The position numbers and the translations under genes are program-made. A DNA stretch of 64,000 nt. Origin: Candidatus Levyibacteriota bacterium. GTDB taxonomy: Bacteria > Patescibacteriota > Microgenomatia > Levybacterales > GWA1-39-11. Where the stretch lies: positions 87,029 to 151,028 of the forward strand of contig JAGORM010000001.1 in assembly GCA_018062815.1 (NCBI GenBank). Direction: 5' to 3'. The notes under the pieces were generated by a model that saw only the letters and a list, made by a program, of their open reading frames with translations, was not told the origin of the DNA and made no database searches. Shown here piece after piece: positions 6,285 to 31,720 of the stretch; the first letter of the stretch is position 1; every line of letters begins with the position of its first letter.

Positions 6285-6293
6285 TTCTAAAAT

Positions 6294-6323: not shown

Positions 6324-6353
6324 AAGTATTTACGGTATGTTAGAATCAAGTTA

Positions 6354-13768: not shown

Positions 13769-13813
13769 AAATTTAGAACCTACGCAAGATTGAAATGAGA
13801 GGAAAAAAGGACT

Positions 13814-14626: not shown

Positions 14627-15174
14627 TAAAAATGGATGATAAAACACAAAAACCAAAAGTAGAAGAAAATCTAGAGGAGATAGAAGAATTAGATGATGAA
14701 TTGGATGAAGAAGAAGAGGAGTTGGCATCAGATCACAGGGAATTAGACGAGTTGCGGGAGAAAAATAAAAGTCTTGAAGATCAATTGAAGCGAGCAGTTG
14801 CAGATTATAGAAATCTTGAAAATAGAGTTCGGGAAGAGCGCTTAGACTTTGTTAAGTACGCAAACAGATCGCTCATAGAGCAGTTGCTTCCGGCATTTGA
14901 CACGATGCTGCTTGCCGAAAAATATACAAAAGATGAGAATTTAAAAATTACTGCAAAACACATACTGGAAGTATTGAAGGTTGCAGGAATTGAAAAAGTT
15001 GAGACGGTTGGTAAAAAATATGACCCTATAAGTATGGAGGCGGTAGAAGTAGTAGAGGGGGAGAAGGAAAAGGTAATTGATGAGACACAGCCTGGGTTTA
15101 TGATATATGGAAAAATTATAAGACCGGCAAGGGTTAGAGTTGGAGGGAAAGAAGAGCCGAAAGAGCAAAAATAG
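14620..15174 (+). CDS. grpE: Nucleotide exchange factor GrpE
   Basis: Acidic N-terminus, long coiled coil, conserved RNLENRVREERLDFVKYANRSLIEQLLPAFD region. 7-nt overlap with hrcA. Confidence 0.9.
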   Translation: MVIKMDDKTQKPKVEENLEEIEELDDELDEEEEELASDHRELDELREKNKSLEDQLKRAVADYRNLENRVREERLDFVKYANRSLIEQLLPAFDTMLLAEKYTKDENLKITAKHILEVLKVAGIEKVETVGKKYDPISMEAVEVVEGEKEKVIDETQPGFMIYGKIIRPARVRVGGKEEPKEQK

Positions 15175-15241
15175 ATTACAATATTTTATGATTCTTGAAA
15201 TTTAATAGAGAATACATAATAATAAGGAGGAATAAAAAAAT

Positions 15242-17176
15242 ATGTCTAAAATAATAGGAATAGATTTAGGAACTACAAATTCATGCGTTGCAGTAATGGA
15301 AGGTGGCGCGCCAAAAGTAATATTTTCTGCAGAAGGAAGAAATGTGACACCATCTGTTGTAGATCCGGTAGACCGAGTAGTTGGTGATGTAGCAAAGAGG
15401 CAGATGGTTTTAAAACCGAAACGCATCATTTTTTCTATAAAACGTCTTATGGGTCGTCGCTTTAATGATCCGACAGTTCAACAGGACATAAAGCTCCTTC
15501 CTTATACTGTAAAAGCAGGAAAGGATGGTCTTGCGGTTGTGGAAGTTGATGGGAAGTCATATACACCTCAGGAGATTTCAGCAATGATTTTACAAAAGAT
15601 AAAGTCTGATGCTGAGTCGTATTTGGGAGATAAAATCACACAGGCAGTTATTACAGTTCCTGCGTATTTTGACGATGCGCAACGACAAGCAACAAAACAA
15701 GCGGGTGAGATTGCAGGGTTAGAAGTTCTACGTATTGTAAACGAGCCTACGGCTGCTGCGCTTGCCTACGGATTGGACAAAAAACACGCACATACAATTG
15801 CCGTATATGACATGGGCGGCGGTACGTTTGACGTATCCATATTAGAGTTAGGAGAAGGTGTTTACGAAGTAAAATCTACAAACGGAGATACACATTTGGG
15901 TGGAGATGACTTTGATCAAAAAATTATAGATTATATTGCGGATGAATTTAAGAAAGATAATAATATTGATCTAAGAAGTGACCCTCAGGCATTACAAAGA
16001 CTTAAAGAAGCAGCTGAGAAAGCAAAGATTGAATTGTCATCATCATCTGAAGCCGAAATTAATCAACCGTTCATAACTCAAGGGCCAAATGGACCACTTC
16101 ATCTAACAATGAAGTTAACTCGTGCGAAGCTTGAGAGTATAGTAGGAGATTTAATTACAAAGTCATTTAAGTCTGTTGAATCAGCACTTAAAGATGCAGG
16201 GCTAAAAGCATCTGATGTAAATGAGATTATTATGGTTGGGGGCATGACAAGAATGCCAAAGGTCGTAGAAGAGGTAACAAAATTCTTTGGAAAAGAACCT
16301 AATAAGAGTGTAAACCCGGATGAAGTAGTGGCGATTGGTGCAGCTGTTCAGGCAGGAGTATTGGGAGGAGACGTGAAAGATGTACTACTTTTAGATGTAA
16401 CTCCTTTAACTCTTGGAATTGAAACATTAGGCGGAGTTGCAACACCGCTTATTAATAGAAATTCAACAATTCCAACCAAAAAGTCTCAGGTATTTTCAAC
16501 TGCAGCCGACAATCAGACTCAGGTAGAGATTCATGTTGTTCAGGGCGAGCGTCCTATGGCTGTGGACAATAAATCTCTTGGAAGATTTGTTTTGGATGGA
16601 ATCCCGCCAGCACCTCGTGGTGTTCCTCAGGTTGAAGTTGCATTTGATATTGATGCTTCAGGAATTCTTTCGGTTTCAGCAAAAGATAACGCAACAGGGA
16701 AAACACAAAGCATTAAGATTACCGGAGGCACAGGTCTTTCAAAAGATGAAGTTGAAAGGATGACAAAAGAAGCGGAAATTCATGCTGAAGAAGATGAGAA
16801 GAAAAAGGAATTGATTGAAGTAAGAAATCGAGCAGATGGGCTTATCTTTACCGCAGAAAAATCATTAAAAGATCTGGGGGAAAAGGTTCCTGCCGACTTA
16901 AAATCGGCTGTAGAGGGAAAAATTTCTGCGCTGAAAGAAGCACTAAAAACTGAAGATAAAGCAGACATGGAAGCAAAGACGCAAGAACTGTCTGACCACT
17001 TGTCAAAAATAGGCGAGACTATGCAGAATCAGGCAGGACCGTCTGGTGAACAATCAGGTAACGGAGAGCCTGGGGCGGAACAGGAAGGTAAAGATGCATC
17101 ATCACAAACGGATCAAAGTGGATCAGAATCCTCTACAAATAAAGATGAAGCGGTAGAAGGAGAAGTAGTAAATTAA
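15242..17176 (+). CDS. dnaK: Molecular chaperone DnaK (Hsp70)
   Basis: [16 protein letters not shown], and full NBD+SBD architecture; 644 aa. Confidence 0.97.
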
Positions 17177-17234
17177 TCCCCATTTTCCTTTTGTAGATAA
17201 TTTTCCTGATTTTTAGAGTGTATTTGGGTAAGGC

Positions 17235-17924
17235 TTAATCTGAATGCGCTATTTTTTTTGGGATAACTATTTTCTTTATTGATTCAACCATTCCTTTGTG
17301 GGCAAGCTTATTAAATAAGCGACGGGCCTCTCTCTCTGATGCATGATAATCAAAGAAATTATTTGTTTTTTTTGTAACTCCAACCCCTAAATCACCTAAG
17401 ATAACTTTCGTATTTCCATTCGCGTCTAGGATAAAAAAATATGTGTCTTCGTATATATTAAAGCCAGCTCTATCTGCCTTTTGTGAGATTTCAATAAGTT
17501 GCGTTTTAACACTTTGTTTATTTTTTACAATCGCCTCAAAGTCTATTGTTTTATTGTGTATATCATTTGTTGAGAAAACACATTTTTTACCACCTTCAGT
17601 CAGGTCCGTTATTATTATTTTGTTAGATCCTTCGACTTGCCTAATGGTTAAAGGTACAGGTAGGTCAGCTTTTTTTAATTGCAGGTAGTGTTTTATGTAT
17701 TCGTCAGGAACATAAAATTCCCATGCCCGGGCATATTTTGTATCTCTTTCTGCAAATTCTCCTACCGTTCTTTCCCTTCCATTTTTTACAAGTATTAGTT
17801 CTCGGGTCACATATCTTGCTTCATTACCACTTCCGATATATCTACTGTTTTCCCCAAAAAATACTTCTGATTTACGACCTGTTAGGGGAGAAAATAATGT
17901 TTTTCTTTCCTTACCTTCTGGCAT
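17235..17924 (-). CDS. Hypothetical protein (no recognisable domain)
   Basis: 229-aa intact ORF convergent with dnaK and divergent from the pilin-like gene. No motif recognised. Confidence 0.5.
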   Translation of the reverse strand: MPEGKERKTLFSPLTGRKSEVFFGENSRYIGSGNEARYVTRELILVKNGRERTVGEFAERDTKYARAWEFYVPDEYIKHYLQLKKADLPVPLTIRQVEGSNKIIITDLTEGGKKCVFSTNDIHNKTIDFEAIVKNKQSVKTQLIEISQKADRAGFNIYEDTYFFILDANGNTKVILGDLGVGVTKKTNNFFDYHASEREARRLFNKLAHKGMVESIKKIVIPKKIAHSD

Positions 17925-17964: not shown

Positions 17965-18276
17965 ATGCTAGTATTAATATGTATGGAATGTGCAGCAAAT
18001 GAAATATTAACAGAGTTAGGTTGCCTACCAGATGATCCGATAGGTTTTGTCCAAAAGTTTTATGGATGGGGGCTGTCTCTTATAGGGGGTGTTGGGGTGC
18101 TATTTCTTATTTACGGAGGTTATCACATATTAACATCCGGTGGAAATCCAGAAAGATTACAAAAGGGTAAAGAATATATTTATTATGCAATTGCAGGGAT
18201 CGTCCTGGCAATTTTTGGATACGTATTTATAGAATTTATCGCAGGGTCAGTACTTAGAATTCCTGGATTTTCATAA
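17965..18276 (+). CDS. VirB2/TrbC-like (CPR-type T4SS-like) pilin candidate: two-helix hairpin protein
   Basis: 103 aa. Two hydrophobic helices (GWGLSLIGGVGVLFLIYGGYHIL and YYAIAGIVLAIFGYVFIEFIAG) separated by a TSGGNPERLQKGKE loop. Immediately followed (8 nt) by a polytopic VirB6-like membrane protein. No N-terminal signal peptide is seen; an in-frame upstream stop precludes extension. Confidence 0.4.
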   Translation: MLVLICMECAANEILTELGCLPDDPIGFVQKFYGWGLSLIGGVGVLFLIYGGYHILTSGGNPERLQKGKEYIYYAIAGIVLAIFGYVFIEFIAGSVLRIPGFS

Positions 18277-18284
18277 TTTTTACC

Positions 18285-20447
18285 ATGTTAAAACAACTGC
18301 CCATATTGTTTTTTTCAACGCTTCTTTTTTTGGTATTTTCCTTTCATGCTAGCTATGCTCAATCAACATCAGTTGTTAATCTCTCTGGTAATCCCTCAGG
18401 AGCTGTAAACGTTAGAATTGCGGATGACTCAGATCCGGTTCAAATTGATGACTCAATTACTCCAACGATCGGAGATTGGATACCTGATTCAACAGTAACT
18501 TTTGTGGGAAAAACTGCAAATAGAGCTGGAGATTTTCTTGATTGGACTATCAGAAATTATGATTGGACTTGTGTAAAAACTAATACCGGGTCATGTACGA
18601 GTTCAGGGAATCCGTTGGTAGGGTTTTGGGCATTGATTAGAAATATTGTTTACGCACTTCTTGTTATATTGGTTTTGGTTGCCGCGTTTGTAATGATAAT
18701 AACGCGTGGTAGAAACATAACAATTACCCGTTTTATCCCACGTTTTATATTTATTATTGTTTTAGTAACCTTATCATATGCTCTCGTACAATTTATTTAT
18801 CAAGTGACGGATATTATTCAGGGATTTTTTCTTAGAACTGATGGAAAGCTTATATCTACCAAAGACTTAATATTTATCGGATTTGATTATAAAAATTTTG
18901 AGGGAGCAAGACGATACGGTTCCCAGTATGATGAATCCGCTTTTATCACCCTTTTACTGGTACGGCTTACGGCGCTTACCTATTATGTTATGACTGGGGT
19001 GTTGTTGGTAAGAAAAATTATTTTATGGTTTTTTATTATCTTGTCTCCTGTTTTTCCGCTTTTGCTTTTTTTCAAGCCAATAAGAAATACGGGTAAGATA
19101 TGGGTGGGTGAGTTTTTCAGATGGTTATTATATGCGCCTCTGTTTGCAATTTTTTTACAAGGGTTAGTTGTATTATGGAAAAGTAAGGGAGGTATACCAT
19201 TAGCATTTGATTTTACAAACGTAGGGAATGTTATTTATCCGACAGCAGTAAACATTTTGATAGGTGGTCCTGGGCAAAAGATATTTTTTGATACTGAAAC
19301 AAGCTCCAACAGCGTTAATTTACAGGACACATTCGCGCTATATGTTGTAGCACTGTTAATGTTATGGGTTGTGATTATACTACCATTCTTGCTTCTTAAA
19401 ATTTTCTTAGATTACTTAGGTGGGTTATCCCTTCAAGATAATGTTACAATGAAAAGACTTCTGAATCGCGGATCTGAATTCTTACCTCTTAACCGTCCTC
19501 CTGCCCCTTCCCCATCTGCTCCACTCCCTCCGTCGCAGGGTGCAGGTAGGGCAATGCAAATACCATTTAATGCTGCTGCCTCCCGAAGCATATCTGAAAA
19601 TAGAACAATCAGTTCAGCACAGTCTAATCGTTCAATAACATCAATTCCTGTTAACGCACAGATATTGCAACTCGCAAACTTATCAGTGCCAAAAATGCGA
19701 GATATTGCCCGCTTTGAAACATCTATGGTAACCCATAATTCATCAAAGATGCAGGACGTTTCCAGACTTAAAACATCACTTACAAGAATTTCAAATCCGT
19801 CTACTATTACTGCCCCATTAGAGAGAGAAAGATATACACAAGTAAAACAACAATTAATGTCAGAAAAACAAAAAGGCAACGTTCTAGCTTCCTCAATTTT
19901 GACTGCAGCAAATACGACTGCCGCACCGTACCAAAAGGGAATGGTGTCATCTCAACAAGTGCATTTGCCACAGGCAAATAAAGTTCAACAAGTAAGTATA
20001 GAGGACTATGAAGAAGTAAGAAAAATGTGGCAAGATACGTATCAAAACTCAACTCCTCCAACTGATCTTTCGGGAAAGAAAGATTCAAGAGAGGAGTGGA
20101 TTAAAGGAGATATAGATAAAATTAATCAAGCTATAACACTTTTAAATTCAGTTGATCCTGTAAGAACCCAAGAGGGAATGGATATGGTTTCAAATATACT
20201 TCCGTTCTTAATGATTGGTGGATTCTCCAAGACTGAAGTTATAGCTTATCTCAAGGCTAAATTAGAGGCAGCCAAAGATGTTCTTTCAGCAAGTTCAAAG
20301 AAAAACGAAGAAGATGATACCATGATGGATCGTGAAGAAAAAACTGCAACCACACAGAAGCATATGAGTACCCATGCTGAGGCAGAAATCCCAACAGTAG
20401 ATGATGGTGCAAAAAAACTTGAAGATTTAAGAAAACAAGGATTATAG
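18285..20447 (+). CDS. VirB6/TrbL-like polytopic membrane protein with long hydrophilic C-terminal extension
   Basis: Signal peptide, roughly 90-aa exported domain, then about 6 TM helices. C-terminal half of about 350 aa begins with a Pro-rich segment (NRPPAPSPSAPLPPSQ) and is otherwise polar and S/T-, K/E- and Q-rich. Confidence 0.35.
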   Translation: MLKQLPILFFSTLLFLVFSFHASYAQSTSVVNLSGNPSGAVNVRIADDSDPVQIDDSITPTIGDWIPDSTVTFVGKTANRAGDFLDWTIRNYDWTCVKTNTGSCTSSGNPLVGFWALIRNIVYALLVILVLVAAFVMIITRGRNITITRFIPRFIFIIVLVTLSYALVQFIYQVTDIIQGFFLRTDGKLISTKDLIFIGFDYKNFEGARRYGSQYDESAFITLLLVRLTALTYYVMTGVLLVRKIILWFFIILSPVFPLLLFFKPIRNTGKIWVGEFFRWLLYAPLFAIFLQGLVVLWKSKGGIPLAFDFTNVGNVIYPTAVNILIGGPGQKIFFDTETSSNSVNLQDTFALYVVALLMLWVVIILPFLLLKIFLDYLGGLSLQDNVTMKRLLNRGSEFLPLNRPPAPSPSAPLPPSQGAGRAMQIPFNAAASRSISENRTISSAQSNRSITSIPVNAQILQLANLSVPKMRDIARFETSMVTHNSSKMQDVSRLKTSLTRISNPSTITAPLERERYTQVKQQLMSEKQKGNVLASSILTAANTTAAPYQKGMVSSQQVHLPQANKVQQVSIEDYEEVRKMWQDTYQNSTPPTDLSGKKDSREEWIKGDIDKINQAITLLNSVDPVRTQEGMDMVSNILPFLMIGGFSKTEVIAYLKAKLEAAKDVLSASSKKNEEDDTMMDREEKTATTQKHMSTHAEAEIPTVDDGAKKLEDLRKQGL

Positions 20448-20497
20448 AGTAGACTTGCAAAAAAAGAATAAAATCCACATAATATAATACACTGCCT

Positions 20498-23161
20498 ATG
20501 TTCGGAAATTTATTTAACACAGCAAAACAAGATGACCAGATAGTGACACACAATACAAGGGTTGATATTGATAACCCTATGCTAGGGGGAGCAAATATTT
20601 CCATTAACTCATCAGGTAATCCAAGTCAGATACAACCCTCCCCATCAATTTCCCAGAACCCTGTAGGGATGGACCCACAAAAAAGAGAAAACATGTTTGC
20701 TTTATCCCGCCTTGATCCACGATCACTTCAAGTTCTTCATCATGCTCAGGAGGAAACCAAGCGATTGTCTCAGGAGTTTATTAATCCGGAGCAACTACTT
20801 TTAGGACTTTTTTATGATGGGGATGTTTTTCGCATATTAGAACAATTTAATGTAGATGTTGCAAAATTAACCCATGAGATTCAAGCAAAAGAAAGGCCTG
20901 GTACTTTTTCGGGACAGCCCACTATGGGGCCAAGCGTTGTTAAGATATTTGATGAGGCATATTCAAACGCAAAAAAAAGAGGTGCTTCATTTGTCTCCCC
21001 TGAGGATATAATGGTTGCGCTTTTTTCTGAAACATCAACCTCTGAATTCTTAAAAACATTTGGTGTGCAGAGAGATAAATTAGAGGAAAAATTGTCTAAA
21101 TCTACAGGCTATGTTTCATCTTCAAGAAAAAGCGTGTTAGAAAAATACGGTATTGACCTGACTCAGGAAGCAAAGGACGGCAAGTTAGATCCTATTGCCG
21201 GCCGCGAGCGGGAAACAGAGCGTTTGATTCACATACTATTAAGAAGAACCAAGAATAATCCGATAATTATTGGCGAGGCGGGAGTGGGAAAGACAGCAAT
21301 CGTTGAGTCGCTTGCTCTTAAAATCGCAGAAGGGTCGGTTCCTCACGACCTTTTAAATAAGCGAATTATTCAACTGGAGCTTGCTTCACTGGTTGCAGGA
21401 GCTTCACATAGGGGTGAGTTTGAGGAAAGATTGCAGGACGTGATTAAGGAAACACAAGCATCAAATGGCCAAGTAATATTATTCATAGATGAAATTCATA
21501 CTCTTATCGGGACAGGGGACACGCAAGGAGCTATGGATGCTTCAAATATAATAAAACCATATTTAGCAAGAGGGCAGTTGCAACTTATCGGAACCACAAC
21601 TACTGCTGAGTACCGTAAATATTTTGAAAAAGATAAGGCCTTTGAAAGACGTTTCCAAGCTGTATTAGTTGACGAGCCGACTGAAGAAGTTGCCGAGCAG
21701 ATGCTTGAAGTATTAAAACCCAAATATGAAAAATTTCATTCAGTTGAGATTACTCCAGAGGCGATTAAGGCGGCTGTTCATCTTTCAAAAAAGTATATAG
21801 GAGAAAGATACTTACCCGATAAGGCTGTTGACTTATTAGATGAAGCGGCAGCAGAGGTAAAATTGCAGCATACAGAAGGAAAAAGACAGGACAATAAGGT
21901 CATAAAATCAGACATAGAAAAAGTCGTGTCCGCATGGACTGGAATTCCTATAACTCGTCTCACTGAGGATGAATCTCAAAAGTTAATTCACCTGGAGGAT
22001 ATCATTCACAAACGATTAATTGATCAAGAAGAGGCAGTAGCTGCAGTATCTGAGGCGGTAAGACGTGGGAGGATTGGTCTTGCAAGTGCAAACAGGCCAA
22101 TAGCATCATTTATCTTTTTGGGTCCAACTGGAGTTGGAAAAACAGAGTTGGCAAAAACTCTCGCGGAGATTTTATTTGGAAGGGATGATCTTATGATTAG
22201 GCTTGATATGTCAGAATATATGGAAAAGCATGAGGTTGCAAAACTTATTGGAGCTCCTCCAGGATACGTTGGGTACGAAGAAGGTGGACAGCTAACAGAA
22301 GCGGTACGTGCAAAACCGTATTCAATAGTGCTCTTAGATGAAATAGAAAAAGCTCATCCAGATGTATTTAATATTTTACTTCAGCTACTTGAAGATGGAA
22401 GACTTACTGACAACAAAGGGAATACGATATCTTTTAAGAATACTATTATTATCGCAACGTCAAATATAGGATCTTCACTTATTCAACAAACTCTTTTAAC
22501 TCAAAGCTCAAACGCAACGCAGGTGGTTTCTCCTGCTGAAGAAGCAAAAAGATTTTCATCTCTATCAAAAACCCTGATGGATGAGTTAAGAAAATTTTTT
22601 AAACCAGAGTTGTTAAATCGATTTGATGAAATAGTAATGTTTAAACCATTGCGTCAGCAAGATATGATGCAGATTGCAAAAATAGGCATATCTAAGACAC
22701 AAAAATTATTAGCGGAGCAAGAGATAAACCTAACTATAACGGAGAAAGCATTAGGTGTATTATCAAAAGAAGGATACGATCCTGTATACGGAGCGCGTCC
22801 GTTAAGAAGACTTATACAGTCAGCAATTGAAAATCCAATTGCGATACTACTTATTAATAAAACTTTTACCGTGCACGATACTGTTCAAATTGATTATGAT
22901 GATGCAAAGGCTCAGTTCACATTTACAAAGTTGACACAGCCAGTGGACAAACAGGAACAGCAGCCCATACCCGCGTCCTCAGCACAAGTTGCAACCCAAC
23001 AATCTAATATGGCAGCAGCTGGTTCGGTTGAAGCAGCAAATGGGAATGGAATTTTATCTGATATCGCAAAGGAACATTCGGCTGCTATCCCTCCTCCCGT
23101 ACAATCTGCGCCCCCAATGTCATCTGTTGACTCAAGTGGTACTATAATGCAACCTGCCTAA
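20498..23161 (+). CDS. ClpB-like Hsp100 AAA+ ATPase lacking the M-domain, with N-terminal extension and Q/A/P-rich C-terminal tail
   Basis: Two Clp_N repeats. D1 Walker A GEAGVGKTA and Walker B ILFIDEIH. D2 GPTGVGKTELAKTLAE, Walker B VLLDEIEKAH. ClpB-like D2 segment TSNIGSSLIQQ with no ClpP-binding IG[FL] loop. Only about 28 aa separate ...DLLDEAAAEVKLQ and VVSAWTGIP, where ClpB carries a roughly 120-aa coiled-coil M-domain. Confidence 0.8.
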   Translation: MFGNLFNTAKQDDQIVTHNTRVDIDNPMLGGANISINSSGNPSQIQPSPSISQNPVGMDPQKRENMFALSRLDPRSLQVLHHAQEETKRLSQEFINPEQLLLGLFYDGDVFRILEQFNVDVAKLTHEIQAKERPGTFSGQPTMGPSVVKIFDEAYSNAKKRGASFVSPEDIMVALFSETSTSEFLKTFGVQRDKLEEKLSKSTGYVSSSRKSVLEKYGIDLTQEAKDGKLDPIAGRERETERLIHILLRRTKNNPIIIGEAGVGKTAIVESLALKIAEGSVPHDLLNKRIIQLELASLVAGASHRGEFEERLQDVIKETQASNGQVILFIDEIHTLIGTGDTQGAMDASNIIKPYLARGQLQLIGTTTTAEYRKYFEKDKAFERRFQAVLVDEPTEEVAEQMLEVLKPKYEKFHSVEITPEAIKAAVHLSKKYIGERYLPDKAVDLLDEAAAEVKLQHTEGKRQDNKVIKSDIEKVVSAWTGIPITRLTEDESQKLIHLEDIIHKRLIDQEEAVAAVSEAVRRGRIGLASANRPIASFIFLGPTGVGKTELAKTLAEILFGRDDLMIRLDMSEYMEKHEVAKLIGAPPGYVGYEEGGQLTEAVRAKPYSIVLLDEIEKAHPDVFNILLQLLEDGRLTDNKGNTISFKNTIIIATSNIGSSLIQQTLLTQSSNATQVVSPAEEAKRFSSLSKTLMDELRKFFKPELLNRFDEIVMFKPLRQQDMMQIAKIGISKTQKLLAEQEINLTITEKALGVLSKEGYDPVYGARPLRRLIQSAIENPIAILLINKTFTVHDTVQIDYDDAKAQFTFTKLTQPVDKQEQQPIPASSAQVATQQSNMAAAGSVEAANGNGILSDIAKEHSAAIPPPVQSAPPMSSVDSSGTIMQPA

Positions 23162-23185
23162 TTTCTTCTTGGTATAATAAAATAT

Positions 23186-24940
23186 ATGCAAAGAATATTT
23201 CATGTGTTACGGCGTATTGATACCCGTTTTTTTCTCTTACCCTTTTTATTATTTGCATTTGGAGCAATCGGATATTTAGGTATCCAGGGGGTTTTTTTTC
23301 AAAAAGATAAAATATTTCCACAGGGTGTACGGTATATTCCGGATCAAATAATAGTCAAATATAAAATTGGACAATCTCCAGATGAGCTTCAGAATGCAGG
23401 GAAAACAGAAGATAGAAAGGTACTGTTGTCTGCACTATCAAATGTTGGAGTTTCTTCTCAAAAGAGGTTGTACGTGTCAGAAAATTCTTTGCTTGAAAAT
23501 TATTATGTATTAACTCTCAAGTCTGGTTTTACAGTCCCAGATGCATATAGCAATATTAAAAAGATACCTGAAATAGAAAGTGCTGCCCCTGATTATATAT
23601 TAAAAATACAGGAAGCCCCAAATGATCCATATTACCCATCTATGTGGAATCTTTCTAAAATTGAGGCAGAAATGGTGTGGAATAGAGTGCATGTAGATGG
23701 GAAGGTTATAGTTGCAGTTATAGATACAGGAGTTGACTATCAACACGAGGACTTACAAGACGTGGTAATAAAAGGTAAAAATTTTATTTCTAATGATAAT
23801 AATCCGATGGATGATCAGGGGCATGGGACTCATGTTGCAGGAATAGCTGCTGCAGTTACAGATAATGGTATAGGAATAAGTGGGGTCTCCTGGGGGGCTA
23901 AAATTTTGGCTATTAAGGCGTGTGATAAAAATGGAGACTGTAGTACGGCAAATGTTTCAAGAGCTATTCAGTATGCCGTAGACAACAATGCAAAAATTAT
24001 TAATGTCAGCATTGCAGGGAGCGGTTCATGTAACGGAACGTATACTGATGTATTAAGATATGCATTAAGAAAAGGTGCAATGGTTGTTGTTGCTGCTGGA
24101 AACGGAAATAATGGAGACGGAATAGGTGTGGATGTAGAATCTCAAATACCTGCATCATGTGAAGGCTCTATCGCAGTGGGTTCAATTACAGCAGAAGGTA
24201 AAAGATCAAATTTTTCTAATTTTGGTTCTAAGGTTGAGATTTCCGCTCCCGGCGGCGCTGGACCTTGTACAATTGAGAGTTGTATTATTTCTACTAGCAT
24301 TAACAACTCATACTCACTTCGTTCTGGGACTTCTATGGCCGCCCCTCAGGTAAGTGCTGTTGCTGCGCTCCTTTTGTCCAATGATAGAAATCTTTCTATG
24401 TCAAAAATTCGTTCCTGTATTCTAAATGGTGGGAACAGTCTTCAAACAGATAAAAATATCGGGCTTCTTTTGAATGCTCAAAATTCATTGAGTATATGTA
24501 CTAAAACTGAACCTACCCCCACCCCAAAAAATATTAATAATATGTCATCTATTGCAGGTACAGTGTTTATTGACACTAATAAAAATAACAAATTTGATTC
24601 AACAGAAAAAACATTATCATCTGTCCAGATCATTTTATCTGGCTTAACTAATGATAGTGTAATAAGTAATTCAAAAGGAAAATATTTATTTTTGAGATTA
24701 CCAAGTGGTCAACACACAATATCTGCGACATTAAACGGGAAAAGCGTAATTACACCTATTAATATTTCTGTTGTATCAAACAATGCTGCTCAGCTTAATA
24801 TACCTGTACCCTCCGAAAAGGTAATTATTAAGCCAACACCTTCTGTTAGTGAACAAAAAACCTCTTCTCAATGCTTTGTCGATCCAGACTGCTTGAAAAG
24901 CAAGAAGTCAGTTCAAATATGTTCTTTTCAATGCGAATGA
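23186..24940 (+). CDS. Membrane-anchored subtilisin-like serine protease (peptidase S8) with C-terminal Cna-B/SdrD-B-like domain and Cys-rich tail
   Basis: N-terminal TM helix. Catalytic triad motifs VAVIDTGVD, GHGTHVAG and GTSMAAP. TPTP linker, then GTVFIDTNKNNKFD...KGKYLF...GQHTISAT resembling B-type repeats. C-terminal CFVDPDC...CSFQC. Confidence 0.85.
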   Translation: MQRIFHVLRRIDTRFFLLPFLLFAFGAIGYLGIQGVFFQKDKIFPQGVRYIPDQIIVKYKIGQSPDELQNAGKTEDRKVLLSALSNVGVSSQKRLYVSENSLLENYYVLTLKSGFTVPDAYSNIKKIPEIESAAPDYILKIQEAPNDPYYPSMWNLSKIEAEMVWNRVHVDGKVIVAVIDTGVDYQHEDLQDVVIKGKNFISNDNNPMDDQGHGTHVAGIAAAVTDNGIGISGVSWGAKILAIKACDKNGDCSTANVSRAIQYAVDNNAKIINVSIAGSGSCNGTYTDVLRYALRKGAMVVVAAGNGNNGDGIGVDVESQIPASCEGSIAVGSITAEGKRSNFSNFGSKVEISAPGGAGPCTIESCIISTSINNSYSLRSGTSMAAPQVSAVAALLLSNDRNLSMSKIRSCILNGGNSLQTDKNIGLLLNAQNSLSICTKTEPTPTPKNINNMSSIAGTVFIDTNKNNKFDSTEKTLSSVQIILSGLTNDSVISNSKGKYLFLRLPSGQHTISATLNGKSVITPINISVVSNNAAQLNIPVPSEKVIIKPTPSVSEQKTSSQCFVDPDCLKSKKSVQICSFQCE

Positions 24941-24983
24941 AAGCTTAGAAAAATGGCCTCAGATCTGGTAGAATAGGTAACAC

Positions 24984-25838
24984 ATGAAGAAAGACTATTA
25001 CGAAATATTAGGAGTCTCAAAAAACGCTACTCCTGAAGAATTAAAAAGGGCATATAGAAAATTGGCCTTACAGTATCACCCAGATAAAAATAAAACCCAG
25101 GAAGGGGAAGAAAAGTTTAAGGAAATAAATCATGCATATGAAGTGCTTTCGGATTCTACTAAGCGTGCAACATATGACCAGGTAGGTCCATCCGGATTTG
25201 ATGGAAGTGCGGGATCACCTTTTGGTGGGCAGAGAGGAGGTCAGTACGGACCGTTCACATACTCATATGGTAACAGTGGGGAGGGGGCAAATTATGATTT
25301 TGGCGGTTTCTCCGACCCTTTTGAGATATTTGAGCAATTTTTTGGGGGTGGGTACGCAAAGCGTAAACCAAGATATAGTATAACAATAGATTTTTTAGAG
25401 GCTGTTCATGGTACTTCAAAAAAAGTGTCCATAGACGGAAAAACTCAAACAATTAAAATACCTGCAGGGGTAGATAATGGATCAAGAATTCAATTCCCAA
25501 ATTATGAAGTGATTGTAGGAGTAAGAGGGAGTAGTAAATTCCAGAGGGAAGGGAATGATATTGTAGCTGAAAGTGTAATTTCATTGCCTATCGCCATTCT
25601 TGGTGGCACTATTGAAATAGAAACAGTACATGGTCAAGTAACGCTTAAAATCCCTGCGGGAACTCAGCCTGATACCTTAATGAGAGTAAAGGGAAAAGGC
25701 GTTCCTCGCGTGAGAGGTGGGGGAAGCGGGGATCATTTTGTTCGAATTAAAATTCAAATCCCCACAAGAATAAATTCACGACAAAAGGAACTGCTTAATG
25801 AGTTTGACGCAGAAAGCCGCAAGAAGAAATGGTTTTAA
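24984..25838 (+). CDS. DnaJ-class J-domain chaperone (type II/CbpA-like, no zinc-finger domain)
   Basis: J domain with HPD ([32 protein letters not shown]), G/F-rich region, and C-terminal substrate-binding beta domains. No CxxCxGxG repeats. Confidence 0.85.
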
Positions 25839-25911
25839 TAAAAGACACACAAAACCATAATTGTCTTAAACTATTGCTTTCCCTCGTTGTAAACATCTAA
25901 TATGTATACAT

Positions 25912-26250
25912 ATGGGTATTCTGTCCTATCCCTTTCTAGTGGTTTTGTTTTGGTATAAAGAAGGTTTATTACGATTATTGCTTTACTTCCGTTCATTTGA
26001 TGACTACTGTATACGACTATTTTCTCTGCATGGATTATTTTCAAGCTACTTTAAGCCTTTAAAAAACGAATACAGAAAGAATCTTGTTTTATTCTCGGTA
26101 TTTTTTGGGATGGTAGTTAAAACGTTTCTAATTATTGTCTCACTTTCTATATTGTTTATAGTTTTACTATTTGAAGGATTATTAATTTTTATCTATGTTC
26201 TTTTTCCAGTCTTGCCTTTATTTATTATATTCCTATCTAAATACTTATAA
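25912..26250 (+). CDS. Hypothetical small polytopic membrane protein
   Basis: 112 aa, 3 predicted TM helices, 6 nt upstream of the membrane-anchored Clp-like ATPase. Confidence 0.45.
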   Translation: MGILSYPFLVVLFWYKEGLLRLLLYFRSFDDYCIRLFSLHGLFSSYFKPLKNEYRKNLVLFSVFFGMVVKTFLIIVSLSILFIVLLFEGLLIFIYVLFPVLPLFIIFLSKYL

Positions 26251-26256
26251 ATCCAA

Positions 26257-28626
26257 ATGAAAAATTTTGACATGTTTAATTTATACGTTTTTTATAATAA
26301 TGTGTTCGTAAAGGCATTTCGGTTTTTTGCACTTTTGTTTTTGACAATAGTCTTGTTTTATGTAAGAAATGACCTATTTCTTTTTAGAATAATTCTTAGT
26401 TTCTATGTGTTATATCTTGTAAATGAAATTTTTGTCCATTTTAAAATTAATAAATCAAGTCCGCTTAATACAGTAAGCATTGATAGCAATCTGCCTCAGT
26501 TGGCTATATTGTTTAACGTAAGATATTTGCTTAGCATAAAAAATAATAATTTCTTTATTGAAAAATTGATAAAACAGAAAGACGTTGCATTTTTTATTGC
26601 AAAAATTGATGGGTTTGATTCTTCCTCAGCTCAAGTTAATGTTATAGGTTTGTTAAATAGAGCACGTTCTTTAGCGCAAATCTGCAAAGGAACTTACATT
26701 ACGGCAGCTGATATATTTGCAGCCTATCTTCTTTTGACAGAAAGCGAAAGCCACCTTTTGGAGCAGAAAGAACTAACGGAAAACGATATATTAGAAATAC
26801 TTTTATGGTGTAGAGAAAAGTACAATCTAGATAAAGTAAATTTTATTAATATGCATTTTACAGGAGCAGGCGTTTTTGACTTTTTTATATATGGTTGGAA
26901 CACTCAATTAAAAGAATTCTCGTTTGATTTAACATACAGTTTAATCGGAAAAAATACATCTCCTATTGTAGGAAGGGAAAAAGAATTTTCTCAGATGGTG
27001 GGAATACTTTCAAAAAATTCTACAAACAACTTATTAATAATAGGCGAACCTGGAGTTGGAAAATCTTCACTGGTTTCGTTTTTGGCTCTGGAGGCATACA
27101 GAAATACAAGGTTTATTTTGCACAACACAGTTGTATATGAACTTCTTGTTGATAGATTGCTTGCGGGGGTGTCTGATGCAGGAGAACTGGAGACGCGTCT
27201 AGGGTTATTGCTTTCTGAAATAGAACATATTGGAAATGCTGTACTTTTTATTCAAAACATGGAAAATATTTTTGGGGCAGGCGGATTTGGTTTTGATATG
27301 TCAGGCATATTATTTTCTTATTTAAAAAATGGAAAGGTGCAAATAATAGGTACAACAACTCCATCTTTTTATAAATCAGTTATTGAAAAGAAGTCTAGTA
27401 TTATGAGCTTATTCGAGTTGTTAAGATTATATGAGCCTGATCGTGATGTTTCATTGCGGATGATTGCAGCCCATGTTGATAATATTGAACGGGAGTACAA
27501 TGTAAGCATATCATATAAGGCAATTCATGAGACATTAGAATTGGCTTTCTCATTTCTCCCAGAAACATTCCTTCCGGGTAAAGCAATACTTCTTCTTCAT
27601 GATGTTTCATCCAGGGTAAGACTTGCGGGAAGAAATCGGGTCGAGAAAGAGGACGTAATACAGTTTGTTCAAGAGAAGACAAACATTTTACTTGAGAGAC
27701 CAGATATAGATGAGAAAAAAGTTTTATTATCCCTTGAGCAAGAATTACATAAGAGAATAATAGGACAAGATGAGGCAGTAATTGCAATTTCAAAGGCAAT
27801 AAGAAGGCTAAGAAGTGGTTTTTCTCAGAATAAACGTCCTATTTCCACCTTTCTTTTTCTAGGTCCTACTGGAGTAGGGAAAACAGAAACTGCAAAGGCT
27901 TTATCACAAATTTACTTTGGGGATGAGGCAAATATGATAAGGCTTGATATGAGTGAATACCAAACGCAAAATGAGGTAGATAGATTATTAGGCGGTGTTC
28001 CCGGGGGAATTGAAATAGAAAATTCACTGCCTGAACAGGTTAGACTTCATCCCTTTTCGCTCATATTGTTAGATGAATTTGAGAAGGCACATCCACACAT
28101 ATTAGATATATTTCTGCAAATTTTTGAGGATGCTCGGCTTACTGATAATAGCGGAAGAACGGTTTCATTTAAAAATACCATAATTATTGCAACAAGCAAC
28201 GCTGGGTCAGAATCAATTCGTGAGATGATGCATGAGAAGAAAGATCCTGCTTCATTAAAGAATATTTTAGTAGAGGCTCTACTTAGAGATGGAGTGTTTA
28301 AGCCTGAACTACTAAATAGATTTGATGATGTGATTATTTTTACACCACTCTCTTCTATTGAGGCAGCTGAAATTGCGAAACTTATCCTTGCATTATCATT
28401 AAAGTCTCTTGAGGACGATCAAATTTACATTACATTTGACGATAAGGTTAAAAATAAAATAGTGCAAGAGTCGTTTGATGAAGAGGCGGGCGCTCGGAAT
28501 ATGAGAAGGTATGTGGGATCGACAATTGAAGATTATTTATCAAGGCTTATACTGGAAGATAAATTGAAAAAGGGAGCACATGCTACTTTGACAGTCGACG
28601 AGAACAACAATTTTGTATTACAATAA
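26257..28626 (+). CDS. Membrane-anchored Hsp100/Clp-like AAA+ ATPase paralog: N-terminal TM helices, degenerate D1 (Walker B DE replaced by QN), intact D2, no M-domain
   Basis: 2 N-terminal TM helices (FRFFALLFLTIVLFYV, LFRIILSFYVLYLV) and a degenerate Clp_N-like segment. D1 Walker A GEPGVGKSS but Walker B AVLFIQNMENIF (27253-27258 = CAA AAC). D2 GPTGVGKTETAKALSQ and ILLDEFEKAH, and TSNAGSE. No ClpP IGF loop. Confidence 0.75.
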   Translation: MKNFDMFNLYVFYNNVFVKAFRFFALLFLTIVLFYVRNDLFLFRIILSFYVLYLVNEIFVHFKINKSSPLNTVSIDSNLPQLAILFNVRYLLSIKNNNFFIEKLIKQKDVAFFIAKIDGFDSSSAQVNVIGLLNRARSLAQICKGTYITAADIFAAYLLLTESESHLLEQKELTENDILEILLWCREKYNLDKVNFINMHFTGAGVFDFFIYGWNTQLKEFSFDLTYSLIGKNTSPIVGREKEFSQMVGILSKNSTNNLLIIGEPGVGKSSLVSFLALEAYRNTRFILHNTVVYELLVDRLLAGVSDAGELETRLGLLLSEIEHIGNAVLFIQNMENIFGAGGFGFDMSGILFSYLKNGKVQIIGTTTPSFYKSVIEKKSSIMSLFELLRLYEPDRDVSLRMIAAHVDNIEREYNVSISYKAIHETLELAFSFLPETFLPGKAILLLHDVSSRVRLAGRNRVEKEDVIQFVQEKTNILLERPDIDEKKVLLSLEQELHKRIIGQDEAVIAISKAIRRLRSGFSQNKRPISTFLFLGPTGVGKTETAKALSQIYFGDEANMIRLDMSEYQTQNEVDRLLGGVPGGIEIENSLPEQVRLHPFSLILLDEFEKAHPHILDIFLQIFEDARLTDNSGRTVSFKNTIIIATSNAGSESIREMMHEKKDPASLKNILVEALLRDGVFKPELLNRFDDVIIFTPLSSIEAAEIAKLILALSLKSLEDDQIYITFDDKVKNKIVQESFDEEAGARNMRRYVGSTIEDYLSRLILEDKLKKGAHATLTVDENNNFVLQ

Positions 28627-29638: not shown

Positions 29639-31720
29639 CTATAACAAGAAAGATCTCAATAATTTCAGTCTTGTGTAGAATGGTAGTGTTTTTATAAAAA
29701 TAGTTTTCACTAAGACTTTGCGTTTAGTTGCTCTAATTACAATAAAAATAGATAAGAAGGTCACTATTACAAAATATACCCATGTATCTTTTCTGTAATT
29801 GTCGTTTTTATATATGTATGCCCCTGCAATTTTTATTTCTTTCTTTCCTTCTGTTTTGTTGCCGGTTTTTGTTGTCGCAGCAAGTACTTTTCCATTTTTT
29901 CCAGAAGAGACTATAAAATAACTCTCTGCTGATGCATCAATTACAGTATCTTCTCCTGTGGTCCCAGTTACATAAGAAAGCGCCGTATAATTTCCCGCAG
30001 GTGCATTTTCTGTAAGAACTAGTCCTGTTGTTAATCTTTTAGTTTTCTGAGCCTCAATGTCATCAAGATCAAATGAAGGTCCTCCCATAAACTCTCCATC
30101 CTTATAAAGCCCAATTAATAATTTTGCTCCGTATATCTTTCCGGTTCCGTTATTTTTTGCATCTACAAAGAACGTAACAGTGTCGCCAGGATTTACGAAT
30201 TCGCCTACATTATTCTTATTTGTAATAGTGAGCTTTCCTCCAGACTCCTTAGAATGAATTTCTTTCTGACTTATATCATTTGATTTTTGTTCCTGCGTAT
30301 TTTCTTCCTGTATGTTTTCAGAAATAAACTTATTTGCTCCTCCTATGTTTCCTGCCCAATTCCCAAAAACATTAATAAAAGCAAAGAAACCATTCGTATT
30401 GAAAAAATTTGAGTTGATAAAGTTAATCAGCGATACCCCAGAATATGCATTCCCCGTGTGTATTGTTCCATTTTCACTCTGAATAGTGTTTTTACCTGTG
30501 TCCGCTTGAGCTGAGACATTATTTTGTATTATTGCTGTATTGTCTGTTTTAAGCGTTGTATCACAGTTACATTCAGCGGTGCTGTTTGAAAAATTTAATG
30601 TCTCGCCCCCTTCTTGAGGTTCAAAATTATCCCACCCTAAAAAACTACCAGTCCAATTCCCAAGAACATTTATAAATAATTTCTGAAACATTGCGCCTAC
30701 CGCGTTTGTGTTTACTATGTCTAAAATGTTTACAATGCTGTGTGATGTACCGGTTTTTATTGTTGAAGAAGATGTAGCAGTATCTATTCTGTTTTCTCCG
30801 GTGTTTGCGTCAGCAGTAACATTGTTTTCCATTTTAATATCATTTTTCATGGTTGCGGATACGCCACAGGATGCACATTCAGATTCATTGTGAAACTCAG
30901 GAAGGATTATATTGCCTGAAAAATCACCAAATATATTAATAGTGACAATGTGAATAACAGAATCAACAACAGTAAAATTTGCTTTGTTCATGAGTGAGAC
31001 TACAGAATACGCATTCCCTGTTTTAATAAGAGCATTGTCTCCTTCAGCTATTTCGTTTCCTCCTGTAGATGCAGTTGCAAGTACATCATTTGCAAGATAG
31101 ACATAATTCTTTGCATCAGTTACGGAAACGTTAACAATTGGGCTTGTGTTTTTATCCTGAGAAATAATTGTGTACGCAAGATTAAATGGGGTAGATAAAT
31201 CTATATTTTCTGCATTATCTACAAAGATATTAATAGTTTGATTTATAACTTGGGAATTAATTGAGTTTGTGTTTACTGTATTGTCAATTGATATGATTGT
31301 GGTTGCTTCCCCTGTAGTAATAGAAGAGCTTGAATTCTGTTGAGAAGTAGGCGGAGAATTTGGGGACGACTCAACAAGGGGAGTAGTTGAAGTTGGAGGA
31401 GATGATGGTTCTTCAGGATCAGTAGGGGTTAACTCAGCCGAGGGAGTTGAGACATTCTCACCGGTACTAGAAGTGGCGGTGGTTGTGTCAGTTGTTGCAG
31501 CTGTATTTGTTTGTGTTGTGTTTTCAGTGTCTTCAGTCGGGGGAGTAGTAGGAGTGAGTATTGTGGGAGTTATTGTCGGATCAATTTGCTGTTCTGTAGT
31601 AGGCGTAGGGGTGTTAGTTGGTATCTCATCAAGAGCATAGACTGAAAACGGTGAGATAGAGCTTACTCCTATAACAAGAAATATAATAAAAAGTGAGAAA
31701 TATCTTTTAAATCCTGCCAT
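29639..31720 (-). CDS. Secreted repeat protein (TGNAYS-type repeat family) with T/P-rich linker and C-terminal TM anchor
   Basis: Signal peptide. TPTP/T-rich low-complexity region. At least 3 copies of a roughly 80-aa repeat (...NVSAQADTGKNTIQSENGTIHTGNAYSGVSLIN..., ...NVTADANTGENRID...IKTGTSHSIVNIL..., ...TGGNEIAEGDNALIKTGNAYSVVSLMN...). C-terminal hydrophobic helix followed by basic residues. Confidence 0.6.
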   Translation of the reverse strand: MAGFKRYFSLFIIFLVIGVSSISPFSVYALDEIPTNTPTPTTEQQIDPTITPTILTPTTPPTEDTENTTQTNTAATTDTTTATSSTGENVSTPSAELTPTDPEEPSSPPTSTTPLVESSPNSPPTSQQNSSSSITTGEATTIISIDNTVNTNSINSQVINQTINIFVDNAENIDLSTPFNLAYTIISQDKNTSPIVNVSVTDAKNYVYLANDVLATASTGGNEIAEGDNALIKTGNAYSVVSLMNKANFTVVDSVIHIVTINIFGDFSGNIILPEFHNESECASCGVSATMKNDIKMENNVTADANTGENRIDTATSSSTIKTGTSHSIVNILDIVNTNAVGAMFQKLFINVLGNWTGSFLGWDNFEPQEGGETLNFSNSTAECNCDTTLKTDNTAIIQNNVSAQADTGKNTIQSENGTIHTGNAYSGVSLINFINSNFFNTNGFFAFINVFGNWAGNIGGANKFISENIQEENTQEQKSNDISQKEIHSKESGGKLTITNKNNVGEFVNPGDTVTFFVDAKNNGTGKIYGAKLLIGLYKDGEFMGGPSFDLDDIEAQKTKRLTTGLVLTENAPAGNYTALSYVTGTTGEDTVIDASAESYFIVSSGKNGKVLAATTKTGNKTEGKKEIKIAGAYIYKNDNYRKDTWVYFVIVTFLSIFIVIRATKRKVLVKTIFIKTLPFYTRLKLLRSFLL

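Follow-up and report, generated by a model that had tools for sequence, protein, structure and literature searches.

The closest described relative of part of the locus reported here is the Patescibacteria type IV secretion system (T4SS), which is related to the MPF-FATA type (Quinonero-Coronel et al. 2025, PMC12102498; Southlakia epibionticum system, PMC12857230). The locus is a seven-gene cluster at positions 17965-28626 of a 64-kb stretch of DNA from Candidatus Levybacteriota (Microgenomatia; Candidate Phyla Radiation [CPR]/Patescibacteria), hereafter the window, and it combines a T4SS-type pilin and an extended VirB6-like protein (VirB6L) with a soluble Hsp100 ATPase (clp) and a membrane-anchored one (mClp). 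As in the Patescibacteria T4SS, a pilin of family PF18895 adjoins a VirB6-like protein, and the genes are chromosomal in a monoderm CPR genome rather than carried on a mobile element. Unlike in that system, none of virB4, virB3, virB8 and virD4 lies close to the pair, one pilin gene takes the place of an array, and the neighbors on either side are hsp70 genes and Hsp100 paralogs. The survey of Patescibacteria T4SSs found VirB4 in 2,417 of 3,035 genomes, near dnaA in Microgenomatia; it looked only around virB4, where VirB6 was "scarce" in Microgenomatia, and left DnaK and Clp proteins unmentioned (PMC12102498).

Other parts of the locus resemble other systems. Extended VirB6 proteins (F TraG, the Rickettsia RvhB6 paralogs and the 700- to 900-aa VirB6 proteins of the MPF-FA type) share with VirB6L a helical core and a large C-proximal hydrophilic region, of unknown role in those proteins (PMC12857230), but the approximately 110-aa C-terminal domain of VirB6L is a narrow family that occurs in 1 to 3 copies. 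An Hsp100 encoded with or recruited to a secretion apparatus is exemplified by ClpV/TssH of the type VI secretion system (T6SS) and by the Francisella ClpB that goes with a T6SS (PMC7182274), in both of which the Hsp100 remodels subunits of the apparatus rather than disaggregating general proteins; here, in contrast, there are no T6SS genes, and the putative partner of clp is a T4SS-type pilin/VirB6 pair. The Plasmodium PTEX translocon (HSP101-PTEX150-EXP2) likewise places a ClpB-type unfoldase at a membrane conduit, and HSP101 is among the Protein Data Bank (PDB) relatives of clp; PTEX is, however, eukaryotic, its HSP101 keeps the middle domain, and EXP2 is not homologous to VirB6; the likeness concerns mechanism alone. 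Canonical hrcA-grpE-dnaK-dnaJ operons under CIRCE (controlling inverted repeat of chaperone expression) and dnaK operons with clpB match the locus in gene order, in an operator lying over the promoter and in a ClpB-type gene downstream. They differ in that two envelope genes are fixed here between the hsp70 genes and clp, that clp lacks the M-domain, and that the DnaJ is of class B and displaced to after the protease gene. The membrane AAA+ proteins FtsH, Msp1/ATAD1 and Bcs1, together with degenerate partners of the Ycf2-FtsHi type, resemble mClp in having an N-terminal anchor and an active plus a degenerate ring, whereas mClp belongs to the two-ring Hsp100s, retains a Clp_N remnant, has neither a protease domain nor pore-loop aromatics, and is always paired with a membrane protein of about 110 aa.

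Each component belongs to a known superfamily, and neither such a cluster nor either Hsp100 variant was found described in the literature searched, in line with an earlier reading of this DNA (the initial annotation), which had matched the cluster to no described system. Our tentative reading, in which our confidence falls slightly short of even, is that the pilin and VirB6L are a T4SS-derived membrane platform, that the Hsp100 without an M-domain encoded next to it serves this platform as a dedicated ATPase, and that mClp and its small partner (tm112) tether or regulate Hsp100 activity.

Two linked units in a conserved chromosomal cluster

The cluster is a real, vertically inherited chromosomal cluster of Levybacteria, very small bacteria that are uncultured, and is made of two linked units. 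One is a classical HrcA/CIRCE-controlled hsp70 operon, hrcA-grpE-dnaK, which in many relatives includes dnaJ; the other comprises the pilin and VirB6L, the M-domain-less clp, a variable anchored exoprotein, here a class-B DnaJ, and then the pair tm112-mClp. Their features in the window are as follows:

13813-13849, plus strand: promoter and CIRCE-like operator, the best sigma70-like promoter of the region
13907-14626, plus strand: hrcA, short heat-shock repressor, 239 aa (TIGR00331, E 2e-52, 178.8 bits against a cut-off of 197.2)
14620-15174, plus strand: grpE (from its translation; a relative's product carries Pfam GrpE; orthologues in 60 loci)
15242-17176, plus strand: dnaK, Hsp70 (from its translation; a relative's product carries Pfam HSP70)
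17965-18276, plus strand: VirB2-like T4SS pilin, 103 aa (PF18895)
18285-20447, plus strand: extended VirB6-like protein (VirB6L), 720 aa (TrbL/VirB6 PF04610 below threshold, plus fold search)
20498-23161, plus strand: clp, soluble ClpB-type Hsp100, 887 aa (Pfam Clp_N, AAA, AAA_lid_9, AAA_2 and ClpB_D2-small)
23186-24940, plus strand: S8 subtilase, 584 aa, type II membrane-anchored (Peptidase_S8, propeptide-like and CarboxypepD_reg-like domains)
24984-25838, plus strand: class-B J-protein (DnaJ), 284 aa (Pfam DnaJ and DnaJ_C)
25912-26250, plus strand: tm112, small helical membrane protein, 112 aa (hydrophobic; no family)
26257-28626, plus strand: mClp, membrane-anchored degenerate Hsp100, 789 aa (AAA_2 and ClpB_D2-small; D1 matched at P-loop level only)

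The seven open reading frames (ORFs) of the cluster all lie on the plus strand with successive gaps of 8, 50, 24, 43, 73 and 6 nt, exactly where the initial annotation had placed seven consecutive, mostly closely spaced genes; its gene-family calls were borne out by Pfam, and its membrane calls are concordant with a hydropathy scan. Its outline of seven genes stands but omitted hrcA-grpE-dnaK at 13907-17176, directly upstream on the same strand, and the cluster is an extension of this HrcA/CIRCE hsp70 locus.

To define conservation, DNA around VirB6L homologues was taken from 80 species-representative genomes, and the proteins of the window were mapped onto it by tblastn and ORF-level blastp; the fractions given here count the loci with enough flank. 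The order hrcA-grpE-dnaK-(dnaJ)-pilin-VirB6L-clp-(anchored exoprotein)-(dnaJ)-tm112-mClp-(2-Hacid_dh), with the genes in parentheses optional, recurs in two forms, type A (as here), with dnaJ after the protease gene, and type B, with dnaJ directly after dnaK. The pilin gene is immediately 5' of the VirB6L gene in 68/72 loci, and clp is 3' of it in 61/66, directly in 53 and with a single inserted ORF in 8. Upstream, dnaK is present on the same strand in 49/52 loci; downstream, mClp lies within 10 kb in 26/41. Median gaps are 3.5 bp for pilin-VirB6L, 49 bp for VirB6L-clp, 3 bp for clp-S8 and 1 bp for tm112-mClp, and tm112 is directly upstream of mClp wherever both ORFs were called (29 pairs). 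Separate look-ups of mClp orthologues show the same arrangement in loci L001, L003 and L084 (62%, 42% and 37% identical, respectively), with L002 as the exception. The initial annotation had allowed that the genes might never be co-localized in relatives; the order recurs, and the clustering is not a chance juxtaposition.

Four observations go beyond background synteny. The junction between dnaK or dnaJ and the pilin gene is loose: some 27 of 68 loci have gained insertions there, in 11 cases on the opposite strand (the arrangement of the window), whereas the pilin-VirB6L junction is broken once and the VirB6L-clp junction only by one recurrent 460-aa family. The inner genes also survive translocation: pilin-VirB6L-clp-S8-tm112-mClp occurs in L071 without hrcA or dnaK within 10 kb upstream, L045, L064 and L072 keep pilin-VirB6L-clp without dnaK, and L058 has clp beside a pilin array and VirB6L. 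Divergence is correlated as well. Distance matrices of VirB6L and clp agree with r of 0.89 to 0.93 in three gene sets, the highest of all pairs tested, compared with 0.69 to 0.79 for the known partners DnaK and GrpE, 0.23 to 0.42 for methionyl-tRNA synthetase (MetRS) against any other protein, and 0.89 for mClp and tm112; after regressing out a DnaK/GrpE/HrcA proxy of species divergence, partial r is 0.76 for VirB6L-clp, 0.55 for VirB6L-pilin and 0.47 for clp-pilin, and about 0.25 against DnaJ. We consider the correlated divergence of VirB6L and clp suggestive of linkage. Finally, derived features of clp track adjacency. Among clp proteins encoded next to VirB6L, 57/61 lack the M-domain and 58/61 carry a Tyr-to-His change in the D1 pore loop, both traits being fixed in this family, whereas the ClpB that lies beside a similar small-membrane-protein/mClp-like pair in another Patescibacteria lineage (L087), with no VirB6L nearby, is fully canonical, with an M-domain and the pore loop KFRGEFE. 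In this single comparison, the pattern fits a loss of DnaK coupling that accompanied association with VirB6L.

The remainder of the window holds housekeeping genes (pyrimidine genes, MetRS, tgt/queA, polynucleotide phosphorylase, RNase J, FtsK, initiation factor IF2 and efflux pumps). With these flanks, a uniform GC composition and no tRNA or Rfam match found in the window, we assign the cluster to the core chromosome and not to a mobile element, an origin that the synteny of the locus across species likewise led us to reject.

One public protein entry of 100% identity bears the name Candidatus Levybacteria bacterium. Many metagenome-assembled genome records with a Levybacteria-type locus are titled "uncultured Gammaproteobacteria bacterium" (e.g., L004 and L006; the L004 VirB6L is 93% identical to that of the window). 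These titles look like placeholder or wrong labels, contradicted by the gene content.

Protein features of the cluster

The soluble Hsp100 aligns to ClpA in one stretch and to ClpB and ClpC in two stretches. The spacing from its D1-lid motif to the D2 Walker A motif is only 92 residues in 57 of 61 family members, compared with 141 to 150 in ClpC-type and 209 to 211 in ClpB-type proteins, and clp therefore has no M-domain, as the initial annotation had proposed for a ClpB-like ATPase. The D1 pore-loop sequence is SHRGEFE in 58 of the 61 family members, His taking the place of the canonical Tyr; the D2 GYVG loop and both Walker B motifs are intact in the two AAA+ rings, and low-complexity tails extend at both the N and C termini. 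No ClpP-docking (I/L/V)-G-(F/L) tripeptide is conserved in the loop region of this family. The window's clp scores below the cut-offs of the ClpB equivalog TIGR03346 (897.8 against 1232.1), of ClpA TIGR02639 (728.7 against 993) and of ClpV/TssH (696.7 against 885, with no T6SS genes in the window), and it also falls below the curated cut-offs of ClpK and ClpG. In four species (L061, L064, L072 and L076), clp is split into a D1 ORF (~530 to 590 aa) and a D2 ORF (~530 to 615 aa) with a 4-bp overlap or a spacer of a few bases between them (e.g., L064:9685-13295), which may be true Hsp100 gene fission at the would-be M-domain site.

VirB6L matches PF04610 just below threshold (E 2.9e-5, 24.4 bits against a cut-off of 25.9, covering 172 of 215 profile positions), and several of its orthologues carry a precomputed PF04610 match; it has no match in NCBIfam or among PDB sequences. 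Only the fold search, which was positive for the VirB6 fold, pinned the identity down, profile searches of the pilin, VirB6L and tm112 against PDB sequences having returned transmembrane noise or nothing. A signal peptide and six hydrophobic segments in the hydropathy scan, with long helices in the AlphaFold2 (AF2) model, agree with the VirB6/TrbL-like polytopic protein seen by the initial annotation. Behind the signal peptide come a small Cys-containing N-domain, a hydrophobic helical core (aa ~110 to 380), a P/S/T/N/Q-rich linker and a conserved helical C-terminal domain of ~110 aa (aa 560 to 672). A search of 1.84 billion representative proteins yielded only 336 relatives of this last domain, of which the window's VirB6L has one copy and variants of 1,046 to 2,131 aa (among L062 to L080) have two or three; database representatives with many matched stretches reach 2,790 aa. 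The charge pattern of the domain favors a cytoplasmic side.

An unnamed secreted or anchored family of 460 to 700 aa (cluster 11), absent from the window and without a Pfam match, recurs near the pilin/VirB6L pair (L047:12276-13667, L015:7422-9527 and 15 other loci). In 9 loci it separates VirB6L from clp, in 5 it comes immediately before the pilin gene, and in L051 and L058 it accompanies pilin arrays. In L058 and L068, pilin arrays are followed by VirB6L and then by a SpoIID-like peptidoglycan hydrolase (L058:12932-14656, L068:5682-7382), plausibly an analogue of VirB1, which gives the same VirB6L family a more T4SS-like context.

The hairpin pilin candidate of the VirB2/TrbC type proposed by the initial annotation scores 34.3 bits against Pfam T4SS_pilin PF18895, above the gathering cut-off of 26.6 (E 2.5e-8), and weakly matches the pilin-like family NF045849 of Mycoplasma integrative and conjugative elements (29 against 40 bits). 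Its two hydrophobic helices (aa 32 to 50 and 75 to 93) are joined by the short basic loop TSGGNPERLQKGKEY, and this helix-loop-helix pattern is conserved across 40 orthologues. The family as a whole is strongly conserved, with a short N-terminal tail bearing two near-invariant Cys residues, the basic loop and a C-terminal IPGF(S/K). In most orthologues the ORF begins only a few residues ahead of the first conserved Cys, and an in-frame stop upstream of the start leaves no room for a leader or signal peptide, unlike in typical VirB2 proteins. Proteins of 238 to 436 aa with a C-terminal pilin-like region are encoded divergently from hrcA in L057, L070, L075, L079 and L083 and divergently from clp in L058 (L058:1026-2336), the last being the only one in which Pfam T4SS_pilin was confirmed; pilin-family genes can thus flank the chaperone locus on both sides.

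The second Hsp100, mClp, has about 70 full-length orthologues. A two-helix hydrophobic hairpin (aa ~19 to 58) at its N terminus is followed by a remnant Clp_N repeat (hhalign probability 93.9%, E 1.6e-7). Across 71 orthologues, the pseudo-D1 ring keeps Walker A but has Walker B changed from DE to QN, has lost its Arg fingers and has no pore aromatic, while D2 retains Walker A and B, sensors 1 and 2 and the Arg finger, its GYVG loop being deleted or unconserved. The membrane anchor and dead D1 described by the initial annotation are thus both present. Its count of two unfoldase-type AAA+ proteins is doubtful with regard to mClp, which has a dead D1 and no pore-loop aromatic in either ring and is not a canonical unfoldase as judged by its motifs. 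Since the catalytic motifs of D2 are intact and the pore loops absent, mClp is probably an ATP-hydrolyzing, non-threading, membrane-tethered relative of Hsp100.

Its partner tm112, hydrophobic in the hydropathy scan as the initial annotation's small polytopic membrane protein should be, carries the invariant motif F-x-P-x-K-N-E-Y-R and has 1,411 unnamed homologues, all of ~108 to 110 aa. It matched nothing in Pfam (even at E 10), in NCBIfam, among PDB sequences or, with a confident AF2 model, among PDB folds; the idea that it is a VirB3/PrgI protein, making tm112-mClp a VirB3-VirB4-like pair, was dropped for want of sequence or fold similarity. Pairs of this kind occur in other lineages without VirB6L, and a similar pair lies beside ClpB in L087. 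In L002 (L002:1-9611), tm112-mClp adjoins not VirB6L but a type IV pilus cluster with PilB-like T2SSE, PilC-like T2SSF, N_methyl pseudopilins, a response regulator and an Hpt protein.

The gene after clp nearly always encodes a type II anchored exoprotein and often overlaps the clp stop codon by 4 bp, but the contents of this slot differ between genomes (S8, M4+M28 metalloprotease, cohesin-domain or M64-like proteins, or small stubs), and an S8 protease in it is sometimes split into a ~180-aa stub and the protease. The subtilase of the window has one N-terminal anchor by hydropathy, and its best NCBIfam match is a type VII secretion system mycosin, below cut-off. The initial annotation was right about its identity and anchor but not about its membership in the core, as other families fill the slot; for the same reason, we reject a role of the S8 protease in the core or in pilin maturation and regard it as accessory. 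Cohesin-domain proteins occupy the slot in some genomes (L047:16460-18247, L059:8578-10551), and dockerin domains occur in three flanking ORF families, a combination that hints at cohesin-dockerin surface assemblies in Levybacteria. The DnaJ that follows has a J-domain with HPD, a G/F region and DnaJ_C, and falls below the DnaJ_bact cut-off. The whole protein contains no cysteine, and neither a CXXCXGXG zinc finger nor any zinc-finger match was found in it; with J-domain and DnaJ_C present, it is therefore of class B, not A, in keeping with the zinc-finger-less DnaJ first proposed.

No VirB4, VirD4 or VirB11 was found among the window ORFs scanned with Pfam (the ten largest and the ten flanking the cluster; no ORF outside this set exceeds 388 aa), nor in representative members of the large ORF families without assignment in the 10-kb flanks of the 80 relatives. 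The initial annotation had likewise seen none of the three nearby. Its view that the only ATPases are the Clp paralogs is correct locally but does not extend beyond the locus: with VirB4 in about 80% of Patescibacteria genomes and near dnaA in Microgenomatia, VirB4 is probably encoded elsewhere in this genome, and a Clp-powered machine is therefore not required. The locus is a likely home of the "missing" Microgenomatia VirB6.

Putative heat-shock control and flanking genes

The best sigma70-like promoter, TG-extended and reading TTGACA-17-TATATT, lies before hrcA at 13813-13841, and the CIRCE-like inverted repeat TTAGCAGTC-N9-TATTGCTAA at 13823-13849 (three mismatches, 58 bp before hrcA) overlaps its -10 element. 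A CIRCE element precedes hrcA in some 50 related loci as well, and dnaK orthologues 72 to 95% identical are present in 62. No CIRCE/HrcA site lies directly before the pilin, clp or tm112 gene in any of the 80 loci scanned, and separate control of these genes by HrcA through a CIRCE of their own was rejected on that ground. In 38 loci, where dnaK or dnaJ is the gene directly before the pilin, 13 to 529 bp separate the two (25 to 257 bp if the preceding gene is dnaJ), and no terminator was detected between them by a crude scan for hairpins with a T-run. The cluster may be co-regulated by heat shock.

Further features of the window are as follows:

2455-3016, plus strand: second CIRCE-like repeat (2455-2481) and Hsp20 gene (2567-3016)
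17217-17260, plus strand: terminator-like hairpin (17217-17250) and T-run after dnaK, particular to the arrangement in this genome
17235-17924, minus strand: 229-aa ORF between dnaK and the pilin gene, found only in the closest relatives, L004 and L005
28613-29635, plus strand: D-2-hydroxyacid dehydrogenase (Pfam), its start overlapping the end of mClp by 14 nt

The second repeat, TTGGCAGTC-N9-GAGTGATAA, also has three mismatches and lies ~85 bp upstream of the Hsp20 gene (HSP20 PF00011, E 3e-13); the local HrcA regulon thus appears to consist of hsp20 and the hrcA-dnaK locus. In related loci, CIRCE also occurs upstream of an unidentified plus-strand ORF ~2 to 4 kb before hrcA. The 229-aa ORF has no Pfam or NCBIfam match and converges on the terminator-like hairpin, which it shares with dnaK. 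The dehydrogenase gene, probably a passenger of metabolic function, is co-oriented with the cluster and accompanies mClp in type A genomes. Beyond it, a 693-aa ORF (29639-31720, minus strand) encodes a protein with a signal anchor at the N terminus, a repetitive body rich in T/S/P/N and a hydrophobic helix at the C terminus; Pfam gave no match, and weakly similar ORFs occur in a few relatives. On the other side, MetRS and a 111-aa gene of no known family abut hrcA in most relatives (compared over 3067-13768 of the window); here and in the closest relatives, pyrimidine and carbamoyl-phosphate genes (4846-13768) are inserted between them and hrcA.

A proposed T4SS-derived platform with a dedicated Hsp100, and its alternatives

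Starting from the gene families, VirB6 fold, motif losses, conserved order, tight junctions and correlated divergence observed here, we propose that the pilin and VirB6L would form the membrane platform of the Patescibacteria T4SS-like apparatus and that clp, having lost the M-domain through which Hsp100s couple to DnaK, would have become its dedicated partner. The parts would be in physical contact, and for the direction of action we infer that clp might extract or recycle pilin or VirB6L subunits, or unfold clients there. ClpV of the T6SS and HSP101 of PTEX would be mechanistic analogues of such an arrangement, neither being a family match. The pair tm112-mClp, an older two-gene membrane module, would not thread substrates but hold Hsp100 activity at the membrane or regulate it there, and the anchored protease would be accessory or cargo.

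Several points weigh against this proposal. General gene order is stable in the clade (MetRS and the unrelated 111-aa gene lie upstream of hrcA in 41 to 43 of 58 loci), and part of the synteny is therefore inertia, so that synteny alone overstates functional linkage. An apparently unrelated 2-hydroxyacid dehydrogenase gene is carried in the same transcription unit, and in the window itself the terminator-like hairpin and the antisense ORF separate dnaK from the pilin gene. No clp adjoins VirB6L in L051, L058 or L068: L058 has it ~4 kb upstream, and L051 (which has two pilins and a PEGA/SH3 protein) and L068 have none in the sequence covered. The mirror-tree r values can reflect shared rate shifts rather than contact, the pairwise distances being non-independent. 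In R388, most of VirB6 is periplasmic (PMC12857230), which bears on the side to which the C-terminal domain of VirB6L is assigned. The pilin/VirB6L pair may also be simply dispersed parts of the VirB4-bearing Patescibacteria T4SS.

That last point leads to an explanation that we consider quite possible, though less probable than a dedicated Hsp100: the genes are only co-localized, ordinary but dispersed VirB2 and VirB6 parts of a T4SS having entered a dnaK...clpB locus in one ancestral insertion beside general proteostasis genes and having been kept there by low rearrangement, perhaps with convenient co-expression. Operons of dnaK that include clpB are known in other bacteria (Thermus thermophilus), background synteny is high (MetRS, the 111-aa gene and hrcA keep their order in ~70% of loci), and even the unrelated dehydrogenase is co-oriented and overlaps mClp. 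The survey's VirB4 count and its scarcity of VirB6 near virB4 in Microgenomatia fit a VirB6 located elsewhere (PMC12102498), and L051 and L068, with VirB6L and no clp, and L058, with a non-adjacent clp, point the same way. Mere co-localization sits less easily with junctions among pilin, VirB6L and clp that are much tighter than the one between dnaK/J and the pilin, with the survival of this triad after translocation away from dnaK, and with a VirB6L-clp distance correlation that tops all pairs, known partners included. Nor does it account for the adjacent clp having lost the M-domain needed for DnaK-coupled disaggregation, which the non-adjacent CPR ClpB kept. A reading in which the adjacent Hsp100 does far more, performing mechanical work as part of a re-engineered T4SS, is in our view unlikely: the M-domain-less, His-pore clp would act at the VirB6 platform, be tethered or regulated by mClp and its 110-aa partner, be fed by the class-B J-protein and DnaK, and extract pilin or thread clients instead of or besides VirB4. 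If true, this would be a chaperone-powered envelope machine without a described bacterial counterpart.

The initial annotation had suggested that the genes could form a membrane-associated unfoldase/processing or export machine. Spelled out, this would be an autonomous, VirB4-independent export or pilus machine in which the two Hsp100s, one of them membrane-embedded, replace the T4SS ATPases and move pilin or unfolded proteins across a VirB6-like channel, DnaJ/DnaK supplying the clients and the protease processing them. PTEX, in which HSP101 drives translocation by an Hsp100 mechanism, is a precedent and a PDB match of clp; the clp D2 GYVG loop is intact, the gene after clp nearly always encodes a membrane-anchored exoprotein, often with a 4-bp overlap, and none of the three T4SS ATPases turned up in the scanned window ORFs or among the family representatives within 10 kb in the 80 relatives. 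We nevertheless hold such a machine to be quite unlikely, with mClp lacking pore-loop aromatics and an active D1 and so being no canonical threading motor, with exoproteins whose ordinary N-terminal anchors suit Sec, with mClp within 10 kb in only ~26/41 loci and tm/mClp-like pairs found elsewhere without VirB6L, and with VirB4 very probably elsewhere in the genome; moreover, R388 VirB6 is not a SecY-like membrane channel (PMC12857230). Least probable to us is a quality-control regulon for envelope and membrane proteins, with DnaK/J/GrpE and clp in the cytosol, tm112-mClp in an FtsH-like position, an HtrA-like protease outside, and the pilin and VirB6L as abundant, aggregation-prone clients. 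CIRCE heads the locus and a second one precedes hsp20, the pilin follows dnaK/dnaJ in 38 loci without a detectable terminator, and the protease slot takes different protease families, all as such a regulon would have it. The same slot, however, also takes non-protease cohesin-domain proteins, mClp has neither a protease domain nor pore loops, opposite-strand genes intervene between the hsp70 operon and the pilin in 11 loci, and it would stay unexplained why one particular pilin/VirB6L pair keeps its place beside clp. We therefore retain, as tentatively as it was introduced, the platform serviced by a dedicated Hsp100.

A large part of bacterial diversity belongs to Patescibacteria, which live attached to other cells, and T4SS-like genes are essential in the one Patescibacteria species tested. 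The cluster probably places the "missing" Microgenomatia VirB6 outside the virB4 locus and ties it to chaperones in a conserved, co-diverging arrangement. It also exposes two Hsp100 subfamilies, a soluble ClpB-type protein without an M-domain and a membrane-anchored one with a dead ring, no pore loops and a paired small membrane protein. If the link between VirB6 and the chaperones is positional only, the cluster would still be a useful marker locus, and the Hsp100 variants would be of interest for AAA+ biochemistry. If the link is functional, it would suggest a testable explanation of how the pilus platform of a monoderm T4SS-like system is put together, recycled or supplied, and it would add a new case in which a secretion apparatus has recruited an Hsp100.

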